Positions 1,614-39,365 of a DNA stretch of 64,000 nucleotides are shown piece after piece; position 1 is the first letter of the stretch; each line of letters starts with the position of its first letter. Source of the stretch: Candidatus Bathyarchaeota archaeon (lineage in GTDB: Archaea > Thermoproteota > Bathyarchaeia > Bathyarchaeales > Bathycorpusculaceae); contig CAWGZR010000010.1 in the NCBI GenBank assembly GCA_963827165.1, forward strand, positions 224,001 through 288,000, given 5' to 3'. The notes beneath the pieces were generated by a model, which worked only from the letters and a program-made list of their open reading frames with translations, was not told the DNA's origin and searched no databases. Made by a program: the position numbers and the translations under genes.

Positions 1614-2595
1614 ACGGCTGACTTTTCGGAGGTAATTGAGCTAAACAATGCAGTAAAAGATTATGGCAGCAACAGGCGAATTGGCCCCGCAAATCTCACG
1701 ATCAGAAAAGGAGAGATTGTGGGTTTTCTCGGTCCTAACGGATCAGGCAAGACCACCTGCATCAGACTTATCTTAGGTTTAATCAGGCCAACCTCAGGCA
1801 TGGTGAAAGTCAACGGGTTTGACCCAATTGCCAACCATGTTGAAGCATTAAGGCACGTAGCGTATTCTCCTGAGTTGCCTAACATACAGACTTTTCTAAG
1901 CCCAAGAGAACTTCTTAATTTAATTTCTCATGAACTCTATTTCCCGGATAACGCAAACAGAAGTGGCGAGATAGACCGAGTGATTGAACTGGTCGGTTTA
2001 CACGACTACGCGGACACAAAGGTCGGCAAACTCAGTAAAGGGATGATTCAAAGACTGAGCGTTGCCCAAGCGTTAGTCGGCTCGCCAGAAACTTTAATTC
2101 TGGATGAACCGATGATCGGTTTGGACCCCGCAGGGGTTGTTCATTTTAGGGATGTTTTCAGGGATTTCGCAGCCCATGGGAAAGGGACAGTATTCATGTC
2201 GTCACATATCATGAGTGAGGTGGAATCGCTTTGTACCTCAGTAGCAATGATTCACCATGGGAAAATACTATTCAAAGGGTCAGTCGAGGAAGTAGTTGGA
2301 AAAGTGTTGGATTATTCTCTTGTTGAACTGGAGACTAGCCCTTTAACGCCTCAAACAATCCAACAACTAAAAGAGATTCCCGGAATAACTCAAATAAACA
2401 TGGCAGACAACGACCAAGCGGATGCCATGCTCAGTCGAAATTACAGTTTGTGAACGTGACCATGATATTAGACCAGCAATTGCCGATATCGTAGTCAAGT
2501 CGGGCGCCAAACTCTACACCATCAAGCAGGGTGAAAACATGCTAGAGAAGGCTTACATAGAAGCGCTTAAAGAAACGAAAGGTGGCAAACCTTGA
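1614..2595 (+). CDS. ABC-2 type transporter ATP-binding protein (frameshift near 2430-2460; start inferred at ACG 1614)
   Basis: Walker A GPNGSGKT, signature LSKGM, Walker B LILDEP, SSH loop; conserved N-terminus continues in frame upstream of GTG 1719. Confidence 0.85.
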
Positions 2596-3442
2596 AACGC
2601 GCTGAAGTCATTTTCACTTTTGCAAGGTATGAAATCAAGCGTGCCATCGCGCGCAAAAAAGTTTTGGCTCTAGTTGCTTTCACAATACTTCTGAGCGTAC
2701 TACCATATTACGCTTTGTCCCAAGCAGGAACCAATCTGATTCCCACAAATGTCTACTCGTACCTTTGGGTACTTGCAGTACTCCTGGTTGGTCCGCTCTT
2801 CTTAAACTTCACTGCAATCCTGATAGCTGCAGGGTCGATGTCAGAAGAATACGAGCAGGGCACAGCCGAACTTCTTTTGTCAAAACCAGTAAGACGAAGC
2901 GACTACATCGCTGGCAAATTCCTCGGCGGTTATATTCTGTTTCTTTTTATTCTTAGCTTTAACTCTTGTCTTATCCATTTCATCAGCCTTCACTTTTTTT
3001 GGCGCCCAAAACAACCTTTACCTAATTCCCGGATTATTCATAGCTCAAGCCTTTAGTTCACTATTATTCTTTTCTTTGGCTTTCATGCTTGGAGAACTAA
3101 TCAGGCGCTCTTCTCTTGCGTACATTTTCTCGTCAGCGGTTTTCTTTTCAAGTTACATTATAAGCATTTTTTTGAGCGCAATCTTTAGGGCCACGGGTAA
3201 AGTAGTTTATAAAACCGTTCAGATGTATCTTCCAACTTCGGCTGCAAGCTCGCTTCCTATTCAATATGCTTTACCGAGGCTTCCCTCGACTTTATCAACA
3301 GCCCTTTCGTCCATTCAACACTTCAACTTCTGGACCCACCATCAGCTTCTCAATCGAAATCCTGCTTGTCTACATAATCATATCAGTAACAATTGCAGCA
3401 GCTTACTTCCTGCATGCTGACATTTCAAGAAAACTAAGTTAA
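2592..3442 (+). CDS. ABC-2 type transporter permease (frameshifted)
   Basis: SEEYEQGTAELLLSKPVRRSDYIAGKFLG motif, multiple TM segments, split over ORFs 2592-3056 and 3076-3420. Confidence 0.8.
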
Positions 3443-3557
3443 TTTTATGTGAAGGATACATCACAGTTAACGAATAGATTTCTTCTCCTTTTTCCCTTTT
3501 TGCTGTTTTTGCCTGAATGGTATAACATAAAAGCAGGTTTAGGCAACATACCCAAAG

Positions 3558-4958
3558 ATGACCTCAACTCTCAAATGCATCCACTGTCAGAGTGAATTTC
3601 CAGTTTATCCCTTGAGAAGTAACTGCGAAAAATGCGGAGGAACATTAGAATTCACGGCAGACTTACCTAGAAGCAGGGGAACTGAGTTTTTCAGATCAAC
3701 TTGGATTCTGGCGATACAGGCAGGTGCTTCCCCCTGTAAATCATGTAGTAAGCTTAGGAGAAGGCGGAACGCCGATGCATAAGGCTGAGAGACTTGCTGG
3801 AGCAATCGGCTTAAAAGAACTCTACTTAAAAGATGAGACGCGCAATCCGACCAACAGTTACAGAGATCGGGCAGCCGCTTTCTTGACATCAAACGCGATT
3901 GACCGAGGCTTTGGTACACTGGTTTGTGCCAGCAACGGTAACATGGGAGCTTCCTTAGCTGCCTACACCGCAAAAGCAAGCTTGATCTGCCACGTGTTGG
4001 TCCCTAAAGTGGTCGATGTAGGCAAGTTGGCGCAAATGATCGCTTACGACGCCGTAATTGAAGAATCAGGGAATATCGTAGATGACTCCATTCGCAAAGC
4101 TTCTGACTTAGCAAAAGAATCAGGCTGGTACCAAGCAACCGCAGAACTTAACCCGTTCGTCGTTGAGGCACAAAAAACTATTTCCTACGAGATAAACGAG
4201 CAATTGTCAACCCCTGGCTGGATTATTGTCCCGATGGGAAGCGGCGGTACAATCTATTCGCTTTGGAAAGGCTTCAAAGAACTCAAACAGCTTGGGCTCA
4301 CTCAAATCGCTGCCTCGAATGGTTGGGGTTCAGACTGAAGGCTGCGCGCCAATAGTCAGCAAATTAAAAGAAAAAGCGCCAGTCAAAATCGTGCAACCCG
4401 TCGACCCGTGCATTGGCTATCCTCGTTGGCGAACCCTTGCAAAGCGACTTAGCTGTGAAAGCAATTAAGGAATCGAACGGATTGGCTTTAACAGTTTCAG
4501 ATGGCGAAATTTTGGCTTCTGAGCTTTTAGTGGCAAAACTGGAAGGGGTCTTCGCTGAACCTGCAAGTTCAGCCGCCGTGGCAGCGTTACAGAAACTGAA
4601 AGACAATCAGGTTTCTAGTGACGATAGCGTGGTGTGCCTTATCACTGGGAGCGGCTTAAAAGCCACTGATGTTTTGCAGGCGTTGAATAAAAAGCAGAAG
4701 GCGGCTGGCTTGGGACTTGCGGTCAGTACTAAACAGAAGATTCTCAAGATTCTCAGCGAAAAAGACTCCTACGGTTATGATTTGTGGAAATTGCTGGGGC
4801 AGGTTATGACCCGTGGTGCTGTTTATCAGCATCTTAATGAGTTGGCTGATAGAGGTTTGGTGGTTGGTTACGAGGCGGATGGGAAGAGGTTTTTCCGCAT
4901 CACTGAACGTGGAAGGAAGGTTTTGGCTGCGTTTGATGAGATTCAGTTGCTTATGTGA
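3558..4958 (+). CDS. Threonine synthase-like (fold type II PLP) protein with Lys-to-Arg at the PLP site and a C-terminal winged HTH; probable transcription regulator (frameshifts)
   Basis: N-terminal CxxC..CxxC, SLGEGGTP, NPTNSYRDR (canonical NPTGSFKDR), ASNGN, VPMGSGG, EPASSAA, ITGSGLK, then ILKILSEKDSYGYDLWK..RGAVYQHLNELADRGLV..KRFFRITERG. Confidence 0.8.
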
Positions 4959-4990
4959 GTTTTGGGAATGCTTATTAGGAATATAGCCAC

Positions 4991-5014
4991 AACTATAATA
5001 TAGTTATAACTATA
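4991..5014. promoter_or_regulatory. Overlapping palindromes, candidate operator
   Basis: AACTATA-A-TATAGTT (4991-5005) and perfect 16-bp TATAGTTATAACTATA (4999-5014) immediately before ATG 5017. Confidence 0.55.
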
Positions 5015-5016
5015 CT

Positions 5017-5577
5017 ATGGCGGTAAACATGGGATTCCGAACTAATCGAACAATAACACTCACAGTTGCACAGGCAGGAATCATGGCAGCACTAGTAGCA
5101 GTCGCAACGTATGCAGTGCAGGTTCCTATCCCAGCCACAAAGGGGTACCTGAACTTCGGCGACATAATGATCTTCGTTAGCGCTTTGACTTTCGGTCCAT
5201 TGGTTGGCAGCTTCGCAGGAGGCGTTGGATCTGCGTTATCTGACGTCGCAGGGGGATACGCATCAACGTACGCCCCGTTTACACTAATCATAAAAGGTGC
5301 AGAAGGAATCATCGTTGGCTTGATCGCTAAAAGGGGAAGCAGAAAAAGAAGCATCTTAGCCGTCGCCGTGGCGGGCGTGGAAATGGTGTCAGGATACTTT
5401 TTGGCTGAATTCTTCGGTCTTTCCCTCGGGTGGGCGGCGGCAACAGAAGTGCCCTTCAACATATTACAGATAGTCGCAGGCGGCGTAATCGGAATTCCAA
5501 TTGCTGTAATTCTTTGGAAGAGACTTCCCGAAGCTTGGCTAAACCCAAAATCCGCCCCAACAGTTCAGACAGCTTAA
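5017..5577 (+). CDS. ECF transporter S-component, HmpT/PdxU-like
   Basis: AALVAVAT..IPATKGYLNFGD..GPLVGSFAGGVGSALSD..YAPFTLIIKG; ~6 TM. Confidence 0.85.
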   Translation: MAVNMGFRTNRTITLTVAQAGIMAALVAVATYAVQVPIPATKGYLNFGDIMIFVSALTFGPLVGSFAGGVGSALSDVAGGYASTYAPFTLIIKGAEGIIVGLIAKRGSRKRSILAVAVAGVEMVSGYFLAEFFGLSLGWAAATEVPFNILQIVAGGVIGIPIAVILWKRLPEAWLNPKSAPTVQTA

Positions 5578-5603
5578 AAGCTAGATTTCACAGAGGATAA
5601 GTT

Positions 5604-6611
5604 ATGAAACTTCCCCCAGGAAAAATCCCGGTTGAAATCCTCAAGGAAATCGTTTTCAAAAATTTAGGCGCTGAACGCAGCGAAGTAATTTTGGGTCCAG
5701 CCGCAGGATTAGACGGCGCAGTCTTGGACGTTGGAAGCAAAAATGCAATCGTCTCGATGGATCCGATAACGGGCGCGGTTGAACGCATAGGTTGGGAAGC
5801 CGTCAATGTCAACGCCAACGACGTCGCAACCTTCGGGGTTGAACCCGCCTTCCTATTTTCATGTCTGATGCTACCAGAAAACGCGGATAGCGAGATAGTC
5901 CAAAACATAGCAACCCAAATGAACGCTGCCGCAAAAGAGCTTGGTATCGCAATAGTTGGCGGGCACTGTGAGTCAACGCCAGGACTAACTAACCCCATCG
6001 TTGTCGGTTGTATTATGGGGTTAACTGAAAAAGGCAAATACGTCACAGCGGCAGGAGCCAAGAGCGGCGACAAATTGATTTTAACGAAAAGCGCAGGGAT
6101 CGAGGGCACAGCTATTTTGGCTTTTGATCGAGCGGACCAATTGAAAAAGGTCCTCAATCCATCTCTACTTTACAACGCAAGAAACTTTTACAATCAAATA
6201 AGCGTGGTAAAAGATGCGTTAACTGCTTATAAGGCGGGTGGAGTTCACGCGATGCATGATCCAACCGAAGGCGGGATCTTAAACGGCATCCACGAATTGG
6301 CAGATGCGGCAGGGTTAGGTGTAAAGGTTTTTGAGGACAAAATCGCGGTTGAGCCTGAAACAGCTAAAATCTGCCGTTTCTACGAAATAGACCCGTTACA
6401 GTTGATGGGTTCAGGCGCGTTACTCATATCTGCGGAGCCAGAAACCGCACCCAAAATACTCGATGCATTAAGCCAAGCACACATTGTTGCGGAAGAAATC
6501 GGTGAATTCAACCCGAGCCCGCAAAAGCGAATACTGATACTTAAGAACGAGTTGTCCAAGATGCTGCCAAGACCAGTCTCAGACCACTTATGGATTGCGT
6601 TAACCCACTGA
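5604..6611 (+). CDS. AIR synthase (PurM/HypE/ThiL/CblS-like) family protein
   Basis: GKIP, GLDGAV, DPITG, NANDVAT.G, IVGGHCE, MHDPTEGGI, DPLQLMGSGALL. Confidence 0.85.
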   Translation: MKLPPGKIPVEILKEIVFKNLGAERSEVILGPAAGLDGAVLDVGSKNAIVSMDPITGAVERIGWEAVNVNANDVATFGVEPAFLFSCLMLPENADSEIVQNIATQMNAAAKELGIAIVGGHCESTPGLTNPIVVGCIMGLTEKGKYVTAAGAKSGDKLILTKSAGIEGTAILAFDRADQLKKVLNPSLLYNARNFYNQISVVKDALTAYKAGGVHAMHDPTEGGILNGIHELADAAGLGVKVFEDKIAVEPETAKICRFYEIDPLQLMGSGALLISAEPETAPKILDALSQAHIVAEEIGEFNPSPQKRILILKNELSKMLPRPVSDHLWIALTH

Positions 6612-6647: not shown

Positions 6648-7514
6648 TTAGGATTCGATTTTCTGTCTTGCCACTGTTTCTTCTGAAAAAGGCGCAATCT
6701 TATCAGAGTTCGGTTGGAACACTTGTTGCGTCATGATCGGGCTCTGATGCTGGTTAGGTTTCGGAATCGAGTTGTTTCTTAACCAGTTAAGGGGCACTTG
6801 GAACATCCAGTATAGCAAAAAGGCTGGGTAGAACAAGGTGTAGGCGTATAGATGTGAATAGACTAAACCGCATTTAAATTCGACTATGGCTTGTGAGAAA
6901 CCGGTTTTTACGTTCCAGCTGGTCGGTGGCTTGAAGTGAAGGCAGTATGCTTCTGTGGCAACCTGCACTTTGAAGCCTTGTTCCTTGATATGCTCGATAA
7001 TATAGGCGTCTTCGTAGATCTGCAGGTGATCGGGAACGATTATACCATTGACCGATTTGGTGAGAATCAGAGTGTCGTGGGTTCCGCCGCGTAAATTGAA
7101 GCATTCCCGGGCAAGTATACTCTGCAACCGAAGAACCCGCTTATCCCTCACGTTTGGGATAACATCAACGTTTAAACCCCAAATCGCTGCAACACCATTG
7201 CTCATATCCCTCTGCGCTTTTCTGTACCAGTCCTTGCAAAGAACAACGTCACTGTCAACAAACAAAAACCATTCAGTGTTGACGTGGCGGATGCCTTCGG
7301 TTCGTGCTTTAGCCCTTGAACCGTCAATTTGAATAAGTACAATGTTTCCATGCGCCTTGTTGAAGCCGTCAAGGATTTCCAGGGTTCTGTCGGTTGAGAA
7401 GCCGTCGATCACGATTAAGTTTTTCACGGGCACATTTTCATAAACCGACGTTAAACAATTGCTGAGAACGTGCTCACTGTTCTTAGTCAGCAATACCACG
7501 TCAACTTGATCCAT
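6648..7514 (-). CDS. Glycosyltransferase family 2
   Basis: VIDGFSTDRT, FLFVDSD (DxD), YEDAY. Confidence 0.85.
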   Translation of the reverse strand: MDQVDVVLLTKNSEHVLSNCLTSVYENVPVKNLIVIDGFSTDRTLEILDGFNKAHGNIVLIQIDGSRAKARTEGIRHVNTEWFLFVDSDVVLCKDWYRKAQRDMSNGVAAIWGLNVDVIPNVRDKRVLRLQSILARECFNLRGGTHDTLILTKSVNGIIVPDHLQIYEDAYIIEHIKEQGFKVQVATEAYCLHFKPPTSWNVKTGFSQAIVEFKCGLVYSHLYAYTLFYPAFLLYWMFQVPLNWLRNNSIPKPNQHQSPIMTQQVFQPNSDKIAPFSEETVARQKIES

Positions 7515-7577: not shown

Positions 7578-8312
7578 TTAACGCTGCCCCTCTCGCCTGG
7601 CAACCTCATAGAGCGCGTAGCCTGAGTAAAACGCGTAGGCAGCAAGCAACTTGCCGATCAACCATACATCCCCAAGCGTAAGGGCTTCAGCAAACAACCC
7701 TATGCTGCCTCTAAATGTCCAAACGTTCGGCGGACGGTAATGAATGCAGAATGGGATGTAGCAGGGGATTACGCGGTAGCCTTTTTGTTCAATCCAGTCT
7801 TTTATGTAGGCGTCTTCGTAAACATGAAGTTTCTTTGGAATTTGAATATCTTTAACTAGTTCGGTTTTGATGAGGGTGTCGTGGGTTCCGCCGCGGACCT
7901 CAAAAATTTTCCGTGTAATCCGCAAAAAAATGCCCATGGTCACGGAGCTTCCGATTGTTGACCAAATCTCTGTTCCCCAAACCGCACCAACATCCTCGTT
8001 AATGTACTGTTGGGCTTTTTTGTACCAATCATTACAGAGGATGACATCACTGTCGACAAACAGAAACCATTCTGTGTTTACGTCAGCTATGCCTTTTTGG
8101 CGTGCAGTGGCACGGTTGCCTTTGTCCATTATGATTTTTACGTTGTGGTATTTTTCGTCAAACCAATTAAGAACATCCAAGGTTTTGTCCGTTGAGTATC
8201 CGTCGACTGCTATGAGTCGGGCAACTGGCACGTTGTTATACACGGATTCTAGGCATTCTTTGAGTTTTCTGTCGCTGTTCTTAGTCAACAGCACAACGTC
8301 AACCGAGTCCAC
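7578..8312 (-). CDS. Glycosyltransferase family 2 (tandem paralog)
   Basis: AVDGYSTDKT, FLFVDSD, RGGTHDTLI shared with neighbour; start inferred at GTG 8312. Confidence 0.85.
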   Translation of the reverse strand: MDSVDVVLLTKNSDRKLKECLESVYNNVPVARLIAVDGYSTDKTLDVLNWFDEKYHNVKIIMDKGNRATARQKGIADVNTEWFLFVDSDVILCNDWYKKAQQYINEDVGAVWGTEIWSTIGSSVTMGIFLRITRKIFEVRGGTHDTLIKTELVKDIQIPKKLHVYEDAYIKDWIEQKGYRVIPCYIPFCIHYRPPNVWTFRGSIGLFAEALTLGDVWLIGKLLAAYAFYSGYALYEVARREGQR

Positions 8313-8573
8313 GCAACCAACTCCTTTCTTGACCGCTAAGTTAACGGTCAACTCATAGAGGCTATGCAAAACAACTTAAAAAACAACTTGCTTGACAAAA
8401 CAATAAGGGTTGAATGTTTGCGCAAAAAATAGCCAGAAAACTTCGCATTTAACGCACAAGTTAGCGCTATACAACCGATTCTGGGCATGTACAATCCGTA
8501 CTTAAATGATTTATATTTCCGCATGAACTACAGGAAAATGAGTTCAGAGTCTTTTGTGTCTGAGGCGGGTTGA

Positions 8574-9186
8574 TTGATGATTGTTGGAGCCGTCGTTCTT
8601 GCAGCGGGCAAATCTGAAAGGATGGGTCATAACAAGCTTCTTTTAAGTTTGAATGGGAAGAAACTGATTGATAATATTTTGGATGCGCTGGCGGAGTCGG
8701 GCATAGATGAGCAGGTGGTTGTGTTGGGGCATAAACCGGATCAGAGTTGTAGAAGCCTTAAACCGAGAATGGACAAAGTCAAATAGCTATAAACAGTGGA
8801 TTATCGAGCACGGGATGACTTCCTCATTCCAACTGGATTGCAATTTTTGAGGCATGTAGATGCGGCGTTTCTGGTTCTTGGCGATGAACCCATCTTTGAC
8901 CCAAGATTATGCGCTCATTGATCGAGACTAATGGAAAAAAACCATATAGCGTTGATTGTGAGCCCCGATTTACAAAGGAAAAAAGGGTCATCCGCTTCTT
9001 TTCCACAGCCAACTCTTCGCGGAAATATTAGATTTGAAGAGTTCCCAGACCATCCGCGATGTTGTTCATCGCCACGTGGACAAAGTGGTCAAAATTGAGG
9101 CACCACAGTGGACAACTATGGATATAGATACGCCTGAAGACTACCGCCGCATAAGCGACTTTATGAAAACAAATCAAGTTCGATAA
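8574..9186 (+). CDS. Molybdenum cofactor cytidylyltransferase (MocA-like) nucleotidyltransferase (frameshifted)
   Basis: VVLAAGKSERMG.NKLLL; downstream frames give GDEP, GKKGHP, DIDTPEDY; next to xdhC. Confidence 0.75.
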
Positions 9187-10055: not shown

Positions 10056-12081
10056 TTATTCAATTAATTCTTCAGGTTTAACGGGCGTGTGTCTTATGCG
10101 TTTTCCGGAAACTTTTTCGATCGCTCTTACCAAAGCGATGGGAACGCCTATTGTCGGCGCTTCTCCTAAGCCTTTGGCATGATGTGGCTCAAATGAGGGA
10201 TTCTCAACTATCTGAATCGAAAAGGTGGGCATGTTTTCAGCCGTGGGCAAACCCGCTTCAAAAAGGTTTTTTGTAGCCAAATTGCCTTCGGCGTCATGGA
10301 TAACTTCTTCGTAAAGCACTTGTCCTATGCCTTGTATGGTTCCGCCGATTATTTGGCTTTCAACCATCTTGGGGTTAATCGACCGGCCAACGTCGTAGCA
10401 TGCTACGCATTCCTTCACTTTCACCATCCCGAACTTGTCGATGTCTACGGTTGCCAGTTCAGCGCCAAAAGAATTCAACTGAGGCTGAATTGGCCGCTCC
10501 CACACTTCAGATGAATTATTCACCCGAAAGCAAGTTCTCCAATGAGAATTTTCCCCATTTCTTTTCAACCTGCGCTTTCAATTTTCGAGCTGCGGCTACA
10601 ATTGCTGCCCCTCCAACAATGGCACTGCGGCTACCCCACGTGCCCACGCCGCCCTCAAGCATGTCAGTGTCGCCGTGGTTCAACATTACTAGTTCTTCAG
10701 GGATGCCTAGTTCATCCTTGAGCAGTTTCCTAACAAAAACGTAGTGTTCTTGACCGTGTTGGTTCCCGCCTAACCAAACGTTCACTTTACCATCTTTAAC
10801 AATTATACGTGCGGACTCTCCGGCCGAAATGAACCCTGGGACCAAAGTGAAGAAGCCAAGCCCAGCGTTCTCGCTTTTTGATCTTTCCCTGTATTTGAGG
10901 TCGGTAACGGCTTTAGTGAAGAATGGTCGTGAAGCATCTATTTCTATTCCTAATGGCGACTTGAATGGCTCGGTTGTCGTGTTGATGAGGCGGACCTCGT
11001 CGGCTTCCAAGCCTAGTTCATCTGCAAGTAGATCCATCATGCGTTCCATAAAGAATGCTGCTTCAGGCCTTCCTGCGCCGCGGTATGGTCCTTGTGGAGG
11101 CTTGTTAGTCATAACCGCCCTTGCGAGAACACGTGCTTTTTCGATGCCATAGGGACCCGTCATCTGCATTGAAATGAAAAAAGGCGCCCTTGACCCAGCA
11201 GTGCCGCCGTATGCGCCTGCATCCACAGTTACTTCTCCTCTTAGCGCTGCCACTTTGCCTTTCCTGTCGGCGAACAACTTGATTTTTCCCTGCACACCTC
11301 TGCCGGGCTGCATAGCAGTCAGTTCCTCGTTTCTGCTTGCAACCCATTTTATCGGTCGCTTAAACTTCATGGCAGCGTATGAAGCAATAATATATTCTGG
11401 GTAAATGGCGCTTTTCGAACCGAAGGCGCCTCCGGTATCCGCTTGGATAACATGCAGCTGCTTCCTATCTATTTTTAGAGAAGCGCTTATGCCTTCTTGC
11501 ATACTGTTGACTGACTGGGTGGAGATGTAAACTGTTAGTCTTGACCCGTCAAAATCCGCGATTAAACCGTGGGGTTCCAAGGAGTTATTGGCTATTCTGG
11601 CGTTTGCAAACTCATCCTCAAGCACTACTGGCGAATTTGGGTCTTCGAAATCGTTGCCGACCCACGTTTGGCTGATAACATTGGATTGCGTCCTAGGGTG
11701 CATTGGACTGGCAGCAAGGGATTCCTCCACGTTCATTGCGGGCTTGAGTTTTTCATACTCAACCTCCACTTCATCCAACTTGTCTTCTGCTTCATAGCGA
11801 TCATCTGCAAAAACAGCGGCAACTGGTTGACCCGCATAGTACACTTTTTCTTGGGCAAGGGCTGGATGCTGCAAAGCTGGATTCATTCCGCCTCCGACGC
11901 TTCCCTCACCTGCGCTACCCACTGCCAATTTCAGCTCGTTGCCGTTCAAGCCGCCTTTTACCGAAATTATGCGCGCGTGTGCATAGGGGCTTCGTGCAAC
12001 CATCATATATAGTATGTTTGGAAGTTTAATGTCGTCAACGTATCTTCCTGCGCCTTTAACCAGAAGGTTGGATTCACTCAC
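10056..12081 (-). CDS. Xanthine dehydrogenase / CODH family molybdopterin-binding large subunit (frameshift near 10520)
   Basis: GAGRYVDDI, RSPYAHA, DTGGAFGSK, PYRGAGRPEA, GTWGSRS, INPKMVESQIIGG, AKGLGE. Confidence 0.85.
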
Positions 12082-38297: not shown

Positions 38298-39365
38298 ATG
38301 GCTAGCAAAGAAGAAAAAATTACCATGCTGCATGGAGCAGGTGGCACAGTCATGCACAACTTGGTCAAGAACTACATTGTGAAATACTTCGGAGGCTTAA
38401 CCAATGATGCTGAAGTCCCGCTAGAAGCCATGGATGATGCGGCGGTAATAGGCGACATCGTTTTTAAAAGCGATTCTCACGCGGTTAAACCTATATTTTT
38501 CCCAGGCGGTGACATCGGGCGTTTATCCGTTTCAGGCACCGTTAACGACATTTCAGCAATGGGTGCGATGCCTTACGCTTTAGCGTGCGGCTTCATTTTG
38601 GAGGAAGGTTTGCCGCTGGCGGACTTGGAGCGGATTCTGGTAAGCATGCGTGACACATGCATTGAAGTTGGCGTCGGCATAGTTACGGGTGATACCAAAG
38701 TCGTAGAAAAGGGCGCGTTAGGCGGCTTAGTCATGAATCTATCAGGCATAGGCAAACGAACCCCGGCCTTAGACAGTAACCTAGGCGTGGCGAACCAATA
38801 TCGCAAAGTTGCCAGCCGTTGGACTCTGGACTCTAACGTTGTGGAAGGCGACAAAATCATCCTCACAGGCACAATCGGAGACCACGGAATAGCAGTGCTT
38901 TCCGCTCAGCAGGGACTCAAGTTCGGCAGCGAAATAAAATCCGACGTAAGACCATTAAATCGCATGCTTCAGCATTTGTTTGGACAAATAGGGGGGGTTA
39001 TTTCAGTAAAAGATCCCACTCGTGGCGGTTTAGCTGACGCGCTTAATGAGTGGGCGGAGAAATCCCACGTGGGAATATTGATCCAGGAAGGGAAGGTTCC
39101 TATCCGCGAGGATGTTCAGGCGGCATGCGACATGCTTGGCTTGGACCCGCTGGAAGTTGGGAACGAGGGTAAATACATAATCGGAGTGGTCAAAGAGAAA
39201 GCGCAGGAAGCCTTAGAGTTTTTGAAGCAGACGGAAGAGGGGAAGAACGCACAAATAATCGGGGAAGCGACAAGCCAATTCAAGGGCGTAGCGATGCAAA
39301 CTGAGGTCGGCGGTAAAAGAATTATCGCAAGACCAATTGGCGACCCTGTGCCAAGAATTTGCTAA
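38298..39365 (+). CDS. hypE: Hydrogenase maturation protein HypE
   Basis: HGAGG, PIFFPGGDIG, GDTKVV, DPTRGG, NEG, C-terminal PRIC. Confidence 0.96.
   Translation: MASKEEKITMLHGAGGTVMHNLVKNYIVKYFGGLTNDAEVPLEAMDDAAVIGDIVFKSDSHAVKPIFFPGGDIGRLSVSGTVNDISAMGAMPYALACGFILEEGLPLADLERILVSMRDTCIEVGVGIVTGDTKVVEKGALGGLVMNLSGIGKRTPALDSNLGVANQYRKVASRWTLDSNVVEGDKIILTGTIGDHGIAVLSAQQGLKFGSEIKSDVRPLNRMLQHLFGQIGGVISVKDPTRGGLADALNEWAEKSHVGILIQEGKVPIREDVQAACDMLGLDPLEVGNEGKYIIGVVKEKAQEALEFLKQTEEGKNAQIIGEATSQFKGVAMQTEVGGKRIIARPIGDPVPRIC

Follow-up and report, generated by a model that had tools for sequence, protein, structure and literature searches.

The window analysed here is a stretch of 64,000 nucleotides from a Candidatus Bathyarchaeota archaeon (GenBank assembly GCA_963827165.1, contig CAWGZR010000010.1, positions 224,001 to 288,000; G000:C10:224001-288000 in our numbering, genome G000 of the class Bathyarchaeia comprising 3.13 Mb on 14 contigs and being 94.5% complete). 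It carries a three-gene locus that is probably, with a likelihood of about 60%, the archaeal counterpart of the bacterial PdxR-PdxK-PdxU locus for vitamin B6 salvage, made of non-homologous parts, where the first product would repress, the second import and the third phosphorylate. All three genes lie on the forward strand. Gene 1 (3558..4958) encodes a protein, hereafter REG, with a zinc ribbon, a threonine-synthase-like sensor domain with pyridoxal-5'-phosphate (PLP) fold type II and a C-terminal PadR-type winged helix; gene 2 (5017..5577) encodes S1, an S-component of the energy-coupling factor (ECF) type from the PF07155 (PdxU/HmpT) group, proposed to bind and transport a B6 vitamer; gene 3 (5604..6611) encodes an ATP-utilising enzyme of the PurM superfamily, proposed to be a B6 vitamer kinase. 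A preliminary description of this DNA, made from the sequence alone, had proposed a B6 module of three co-oriented genes with short gaps; the layout stands, with 58 nt between genes 1 and 2 and 26 nt between genes 2 and 3, while gene 1 is not one open frame, as it contains three frame changes. Its domain assignments were reproduced with Pfam, which gives PALP and PadR for gene 1, PF07155 for gene 2, AIRS and AIRS_C for gene 3. The B6 reading is well supported for the regulator and the transporter; the kinase role of gene 3, suggested by its neighbourhood, is the weakest link of the model.

To judge from its sequence, gene 1 is a pseudoenzyme fused to a DNA-binding domain, and hence a predicted pseudoenzyme regulator, since the lysine forming the Schiff base with PLP is replaced in 22 out of 22 REG relatives and a canonical threonine synthase (ThrC) is found elsewhere in the genome. 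The protein starts with a CxxC...CxxC zinc ribbon, matches PALP (PF00291) with 164 bits and ends with a PadR-type winged helix-turn-helix DNA-binding domain (PF03551, 41.9 bits for a cut-off of 27; 4740..4928, forward strand, residues 110-172 of the last open reading frame piece). An intact REG orthologue matches the solved ThrC 2zsj with an E value of 2.4e-60, and the best NCBIfam model for gene 1 is NF004170 (PRK05638, 'threonine synthase'), matched at profile positions 52-240 and 277-441; this profile spans the protein in full, the winged-helix part at the C-terminus (277-441) included, and its cut-off is reached by no control genome. When aligned to 2zsj, the window has an Arg codon (3862..3864, forward strand) in place of the Schiff-base lysine, reading NPTNSYRDR versus NPTGSFKDRG of ThrC. 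Among the 22 relatives, the 10 of subfamily A carry Arg, as the window does, and the 12 of subfamily B carry Met, Ile, Leu or Val; the lysine is kept in 2zsj and in the canonical ThrC of another locus (L028, NPTGSFKDRG). REG proteins still have the GNxG motif, as well as the glycine-rich phosphate loop; their ligand would be PLP or a close relative. The canonical ThrC of the same genome, at G000:C5:876059-877186, has no winged helix. In public databases REG relatives are named 'threonine synthase' throughout, a name which is very probably wrong: the C-terminal 136 residues give 893 matches, and both PadR and PALP are precomputed in all the 120 proteins listed among them.

Synteny in other genomes, which the preliminary description had indicated as a check, was indeed found; the arrangement, which recurs in many genomes, is far from chance. 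Two sets of genomes were considered: 101 Bathyarchaeia genomes of at least 80% completeness, and 80 loci from named species genomes carrying a gene 3 homologue, 72 of which were analysed (in the other 8 the gene picker missed the frame of gene 3). In the class sample, a gene 3 orthologue (E<=1e-60) is present in 87 genomes, PF07155 in 93, and a full-length REG of subfamily A in 30 and of subfamily B in 12. S-component coordinates were compared for the best 100 of 150 listed PF07155 matches (79 weaker ones lie outside that list); among these best 100, gene 3 is placed at 3 kb or less from an S-component, mostly less than 150 bp, in 25 of the 87 genomes, belonging to at least 10 GTDB families, and the pairs are co-directional in 11 cases and convergent in 13. 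REG has an S-component at a distance of 1 kb or less in 23 of the 42 genomes that carry it, namely 19 of 30 for subfamily A and 4 of 12 for subfamily B; in 3 of the 12 genomes with the latter it is divergent from pdxS, Pfam confirming pdxS and pdxT in all three. The full REG-S1-gene 3 trio is found in G000, G008, G075, G071 and G031, as well as in six of the loci from named genomes, and in one genome (G007) Pfam identifies gene 3, pdxS and pdxT in that order on one strand. In the 72 named-species loci, the sole strongly recurring neighbour of gene 3 is the S-component, present in 15 loci, all of them archaeal; it is directly upstream and on the same strand in 12 of the 15, and 6 of the 15 also contain REG. 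S-adjacent homologues of gene 3 also occur in Thermoproteota and Asgard genomes (L030, L037, L051). Neither lack of synteny nor a non-B6 grouping of the S-component, either of which the preliminary description had considered contrary to its proposal, emerged from these comparisons.

A candidate operator for subfamily A, the 22-bp palindrome TAATATAGTTATAACTATACTA, is located at 4996..5017 on the forward strand, abutting the start codon of gene 2, and a weaker copy is found upstream of the same gene (4979-5000, forward strand); tandem sites of this type also occur in loci L006 and L008. As is typical of the PadR family, REG passes the PF03551 gathering score and the promoter presumed to be regulated has a palindromic candidate operator (4996-5017). 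The palindrome, with consensus TAGTATAGTTATAACTATACTA, is present in the REG-to-S gaps of the window and of 8 out of 8 relatives inspected. A matrix built from the sites of the 8 relatives alone gives the window site a score of 33.4 of 37, which makes it the one outstanding site of the 3.13-Mb genome, as the runner-up reaches 17.6; a shuffled-genome control gave one match above 18. When the 18-nt core was searched in the class sample with up to 2 mismatches, 15 genomes had one site each, and the reversed-pattern control returned 8 genomes. Sites directly upstream of PF07155 genes are 11 of the 15, and 6 of these 11 are not linked to REG. Among the others, the match in G093 falls inside a coding frame and was rejected as a false positive; those in G078, G010 and G031 were left unexplained. 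The subfamily A operator was also observed before PF07155 genes of another, shorter kind (64-73 bits), which are not linked to the regulator (G043:C2:1793-2317, G073:C22:343-833, G036:C3:1091-1520, G041:C14:1998-2456 and G089:C38:22614-23071), which suggests that some genomes have two regulated S-components.

Subfamily B is associated with a different palindrome, TATATRRG-N6-CYYATATA, derived from three sites before pdxS and three before S1. An exact search of the class sample identified it in 14 genomes, with one site each, the control giving 3; 8 sites are upstream of S1, 5 of them outside the pattern derivation, and 3 upstream of pdxS. Three exact matches in family f14 lie within a coding frame and were discarded as false positives. 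In three loci (L129-L131, from G002, G010 and G034) the operator before S1 is found as two copies 18 bp apart. The occurrence of one predicted operator type before both pdxST and S1 is the strongest single argument for assigning S1 to B6 metabolism. The B6 module put forward in the preliminary description is upheld as regards the S-component and the regulator by the proximity of REG to PF07155 genes, by its position divergent from pdxS-pdxT and by this common operator type; its phosphorylation step keeps the rank of a proposal.

Gene 2 matches PF07155 with 128.3 bits (cut-off 26.7), and its GYxNxGD motif, noticed in the preliminary description, was found as GYLNFGD at residues 43-49. PF07155 is described as the family of PdxU and PdxU2/HmpT (PMC9997740). 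The sole PDB relative of gene 2 is 4hzu_S (E 2.2e-15), the S-component of Lactobacillus brevis that was first named HmpT and later reported to bind pyridoxamine, with six conserved residues in its pocket, Glu41, His84, Gln87, Tyr120, Asn140 and Gln143 (PMC4860826). The equivalents in S1 of the window are Asp49, Lys93, Glu96, Tyr127, Asn148 and Gln151, three identical and one conservative; position 49 is Glu in most S1 orthologues and Asp in the window, and the orthologues retain the Tyr, Asn, Gln and Glu/Asp of the 4hzu_S pocket. A B6 vitamer is proposed as the substrate of S1 on contextual evidence, the operator type that it has in common with pdxST. Four EcfT genes were identified in G000 (PF02361 matches above cut-off), indicating that ECF modules are available.

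The product of gene 3 has the architecture of the PurM superfamily, with AIRS at 62.9 bits and AIRS_C at 82.6 bits, both above cut-off; here as for the other genes, fold assignments rest on matches to solved structures. Its best PDB relatives are HypE (E 5e-22) and ThiL, and the ESM Atlas relatives are 'AIR synthase family protein' clusters only. The scores against the curated NCBIfam equivalogs are all below cut-off (HypE 108.6/251.6, ThiL 95.3/184.15, SelD 75/125, PurM 46.2/236), and the true HypE, SelD and ThiL of the genome are encoded by other genes. In particular, the true HypE lies within the window at 38298-39365 (TIGR02124, 367.5 bits for a cut-off of 251.6), and therefore the names 'HypE' and 'hydrogenase maturation factor', given by one source to gene 3 relatives, are wrong. 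Since 17 columns, including Asp, His and Gly positions, are invariant in an alignment of 52 homologues, with Asp and His of metal- and ATP-binding type kept, gene 3 is likely an active ATP-using enzyme. Only AIRS and AIRS_C are matched by gene 3, and not PF08543/PfkB; it can be an analogue, not a member, of the PdxK/PdxY/ThiD2 pyridoxal kinases. A GAGGA-like site precedes its start codon. In a quick maximum likelihood tree (IQ-TREE, 98 rows), the window protein falls in a clade of 19 Bathyarchaeia rows, with a support of 99 in the approximate likelihood ratio test (SH-aLRT); of these 19, 15 are adjacent to an S-component and 1 to pdxST. Fused homologues of gene 3 carry HAD, GIY-YIG or NYN domains and none carries an S-component. 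One of them, P0167 (565 aa, 42% identity), has an N-terminal HAD-family phosphatase domain; a phosphatase-kinase fusion would fit a cycle of phosphorylated vitamers, but the protein may also be a gene-call artefact.

The gene content of the genomes indicates a need for external B6. PdxS was not found in G000, nor in any of 3 same-genus genomes; one of 9 genomes from the same family has it, and so do 20 of the 101 genomes of the class sample; as no PdxS was found in the other 81, most of the class appears to depend on external B6. For PF08543, which includes PdxK, PdxY and ThiD, no match reached the cut-off in G000 or in the 3 genomes of its genus. The failure to find either PdxS or a PF08543 kinase in G000, together with the gene 3 orthologue directly upstream of pdxS-pdxT in one genome, agrees with the B6 module as first described. 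Gene 3 is found in 14 genomes with PdxS and in 73 where PdxS was not found, and is not found in 6 with PdxS and in 8 without; no statistic was drawn from these numbers, because related genomes are not independent.

According to the favoured model, S1 would bind an external B6 vitamer and import it, probably docked to a shared ECF module. The gene 3 product, co-transcribed with S1 across the 26-nt gap, would use ATP to trap the vitamer as its 5'-phosphate, substituting for the ribokinase-fold PdxK not found in G000. REG would bind PLP or a close relative reversibly and non-covalently and, as a dimer, would contact through its PadR winged helices the 22-bp palindrome overlapping the promoter and start of gene 2, repressing the operon while B6 is plentiful. 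The sister regulator of prototrophic relatives would act likewise at pdxST. Within this model, the domain architecture, the lost lysine, the conserved operator and the regulon are shown by the analysis, while the ligand of REG, the sign of its regulation, the substrate of S1 and the activity of gene 3 are inferred.

Several observations weigh against this model, most of them concerning gene 3. In none of the 14 genomes where gene 3 is convergent with S1 or unlinked from it was an operator found before it, nor did the subfamily A search of the class sample, which allowed up to 2 mismatches, place one before it; gene 3 would then belong to the regulon only where it shares the operon, given that the stand-alone gene is not preceded by an operator. 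Some genomes (G037, G044) have REG and S1 and no gene 3 match at E<=1e-60, PdxS and gene 3 occur together in 14 genomes and are both missing from 8 with the thresholds applied, and the adjacency of gene 3 to S-components in convergent orientation could be retained synteny. The known chemistry of the PurM superfamily is the phosphorylation of a carbonyl oxygen, of selenide or of phosphate, and the step proposed for gene 3 would be that of a hydroxyl kinase. In bacteria and haloarchaea possessing PdxK-type genes, homologues with about 40% identity are frequent; one of them, in Haloferax volcanii (L086, pHV4 493903-497203, 41.6% identity), is flanked by a gene of the alanine-glyoxylate aminotransferase family and by cobyrinic acid a,c-diamide synthase (cbiA) and corrinoid adenosyltransferase (cobA), and another, in an uncultured bacterium (L075:5995-7756), is followed by a thiamine pyrophosphate (TPP) riboswitch (RF00059, 67.8 bits) and a ThiT S-component (PF09515, 162.6 bits). 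A full-length PF08543 protein is present in 55 of the 101 genomes, in frames mostly of 440-530 aa, the one scanned being a ThiD-ThiN fusion (ThiDN); because the ThiD-type kinases of some bacteria are reported to phosphorylate B6 vitamers (PMC9997740), not every genome requires a new kinase, and such enzymes could serve about half of the genomes. As for the other two genes, two of the six pocket residues of 4hzu_S differ in S1 (His to Lys and Gln to Glu), and the palindromes, which are AT-rich, coincide in part with likely TATA boxes, so that some of their conservation may be due to the promoter.

These points give room to the explanation that only REG and S1 form a B6-responsive uptake system, gene 3 being another housekeeping ATP-dependent enzyme of the PurM superfamily held in place by retained synteny, with phosphorylation provided by ThiD-type or other kinases or with a vitamer used in phosphorylated form. 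Besides the lack of an operator before gene 3 unless it is co-transcribed with S1, this explanation would account for the near universality of gene 3 in the class (87/101) regardless of the PdxS or ThiDN state, for the absence of any recurring neighbour of its bacterial homologues in the 72 of 80 loci analysed, and for the 62 of 87 genomes where no S-component adjoins it among the best 100 PF07155 matches. However, the adjacency outlasts the inversion of relative orientation and extends over at least 10 families, the gene 3-pdxS-pdxT order occurs in G007, and the 26-nt gap points to a shared operon, as do the arrangements in family f1 and in 12 of the 15 S-adjacent loci; moreover, neither PdxS nor PF08543 was found in the genus of the window, and a paralogue repeats the same pairing logic with ThiE. 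We consider this explanation unlikely, though the most credible of the alternatives, and the kinase assignment is retained in the favoured model.

The paralogue belongs to a parallel cluster located about 103 kb upstream of the window (G000:C10:121120-124855), which contains a TetR gene, a PF07155 S-component (S2), an S-adenosylmethionine-dependent methyltransferase, a PurM-like protein 33% identical to gene 3 and ThiE. Orthologues of the ThiE-linked protein (E<=1e-80) are present in 8 of the 101 genomes and form their own clade in the 98-row tree (support 100), and S2-type genes stand alongside in 6 of the 7 other loci; since all of the 8 genomes have no PF08543 protein (ThiD), it is a candidate non-orthologous kinase for hydroxymethylpyrimidine (HMP) or its phosphate (HMP-P). 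This cluster bears on the proposal that the locus in the window serves thiamine-precursor salvage, with S1 importing HMP as an HmpT-like protein and gene 3 phosphorylating HMP or HMP-P as a substitute for ThiD, which is missing. PF07155 does include HmpT-type proteins, 4hzu_S itself having first received that name (PMC4860826), ThiC and PF08543 were not found in G000, and two further clades of the gene 3 family have links to thiamine. Yet the genome already has the separate S2/PurM-like/ThiE cluster, whose S-component has a different pocket signature, as S2 retains none of the four 4hzu_S residues (Glu/Asp, Tyr, Asn and Gln) kept by S1; the operator type of S1 is common to pdxST and not to thiamine genes; gene 3 is found in most genomes with ThiDN, whereas the ThiE-linked paralogue is confined to those without it (8/8); and the Bathyarchaeia loci do not involve a TPP riboswitch. 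An HMP pathway is accordingly improbable for S1 and gene 3, for which a B6 vitamer is the preferred substrate.

Still less probable is a unit for salvage of alpha-ribazole, the cobamide lower ligand, comparable to CblT/CblS. The preliminary description had drawn this analogy between an S-component-like transporter with a kinase and the pair found here, and the Haloferax volcanii homologue on pHV4 adjoins the two corrinoid genes mentioned above. Against it, the regulon link is with pdxST, the genome has a CobT-like gene adjoining CobS, and no annotated CblT/CblS locus was present among the 40 matches listed when genes 2 and 3 were compared with plasmids by tblastn (another 131 records for gene 3 lie outside that list). 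An Rfam scan of 8 loci, 7 with bacterial gene 3 homologues and 1 S-component locus, revealed no cobalamin riboswitch, the hits being one TPP riboswitch and one signal recognition particle RNA.

The three frame changes of gene 1 in the window also count against an active regulator in this strain. The gene runs through three frames, with open reading frame pieces at 3558..3782, 3724..4338, 4226..4468 and 4413..4958, while intact orthologues in relatives have a single frame of 465-476 aa. Logan contigs of four soil metagenome runs (X1-X4) were aligned to window positions 3400-5100; X4 does not reach the break sites, and the three informative runs come from two studies. With respect to these contigs, the window has one surplus base at 3668 (contigs of X1 and X3), one at 4300 (X1 and X2) and one at 4384 (X1, X2 and X3), all on the forward strand; each is missing from every contig spanning the respective site, and the three sites correspond exactly to the three frame changes. 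The breaks are thus most likely indel errors of the assembly, given that the public contigs do not have the three bases and that the frame is intact in relatives; the gene may nevertheless be a true pseudogene in this strain, since contigs and window are about 1% apart and the former perhaps represent a sister strain. That gene 1 is a working threonine synthase, decayed here and lying beside genes 2 and 3 by coincidence, is hardly credible, for its uniform public name, the strong similarity to solved ThrC (E 2.4e-60) and the broken frame of the window copy are outweighed by the missing catalytic lysine (22/22), the fused PadR domain, the canonical ThrC at another locus, the conserved operators and neighbourhoods and the public contigs devoid of the frame changes.

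Other genes of the window also appear split or truncated (1719-3420, 8574-8786 and 10056-12081): an ABC ATPase starting within its P-loop region, an ABC-2 permease split over two frames, a MobA-like stub of 70 aa and a molybdopterin oxidoreductase in two overlapping frames. They fit scattered indel errors in the assembly, as proposed for the three breaks of gene 1. Downstream of gene 3, two tandem paralogous glycosyltransferase-like genes are found on the reverse strand (6648-7514 and 7578-8369); in 9 related loci, too, gene 3 is followed by a homologue, an arrangement suggestive of lineage synteny with no obvious functional tie.

Bathyarchaeia are an abundant class of sediments and soils, and B6 transporters, salvage kinases and regulators are described as acknowledged gaps (PMC9997740); the locus supplies one candidate each for sensor, transporter and kinase. 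In the main text of the articles that a full-text literature search covered, no account was found of a regulator derived from ThrC, an archaeal B6 regulon or a B6 kinase with a PurM fold. The locus also corrects two names in wide use, 'threonine synthase' and 'hydrogenase maturation factor HypE'. If true, the lysine-less PLP-fold sensor would be a clean case of a pseudoenzyme turned into a ligand sensor, and a vitamer kinase with a PurM fold would extend the range of reactions of the superfamily; both sensor and kinase bear on the prediction of vitamin cross-feeding and on the design of media for uncultured archaea. A wider generalisation can be offered only tentatively, at slightly less than even odds: B6 homeostasis in archaea, of the class Bathyarchaeia at least, may involve two unrecognised families, ThrC-derived sensors without the lysine, which would bind PLP non-covalently and control pdxST or a PdxU-type transporter, and PurM-superfamily kinases of hydroxymethyl-pyridines and -pyrimidines (gene 3 for B6, the ThiE-linked paralogue for HMP), which would replace the ribokinase-type PdxK and ThiD at the level of the fold.

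Comparison with known systems places the locus closest to the bacterial PdxR-PdxK-PdxU genes, as in both a regulator combining a PLP-enzyme fold with a winged helix lies beside a B6 S-component and a kinase, and is divergent from pdxST elsewhere; PdxR regulons are reported to comprise pdxST, pdxK and pdxU (PMC5320631; PMC11619246). The S-components are homologous (PF07155). Conversely, the MocR/PdxR proteins, which are described as absent from Archaea (PMC5320631), have a fold type I aminotransferase-like domain and an N-terminal GntR domain, whereas REG has a fold type II ThrC-like domain, a C-terminal PadR domain and no Schiff-base lysine; by analogy, REG would work like PdxR without being a member of that family. 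The kinases are not homologous either, since PdxK has a ribokinase fold and the proposed kinase encoded by gene 3 a PurM fold. With the threonine synthase family (TIGR00260/NF004170), REG shares the PLP fold type II domain but not the catalytic lysine. The PdxU2/HmpT protein of Lactobacillus brevis (4HZU chain S) and S1 belong to a common Pfam family and have identical equivalents of Tyr120, Asn140 and Gln143; however, S1 is archaeal, its GYxNxG[ED] loop is not present in 4hzu_S, and His84 and Gln87 are replaced by Lys and Glu. ThiL, HypE, SelD and PurM have the same two-domain AIRS/AIRS_C architecture as gene 3, with Asp, His and Gly columns conserved, but gene 3 is below the cut-off of every equivalog. 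Finally, the CblT-CblS pair of Firmicutes, as described (PMC6461909; PMC6167548), likewise joins a small membrane transporter to a salvage kinase; this likeness is drawn from its description and not from the CblS sequence, and no cobamide context was found for the Bathyarchaeia loci, their partners being pdxST, S1 and REG.

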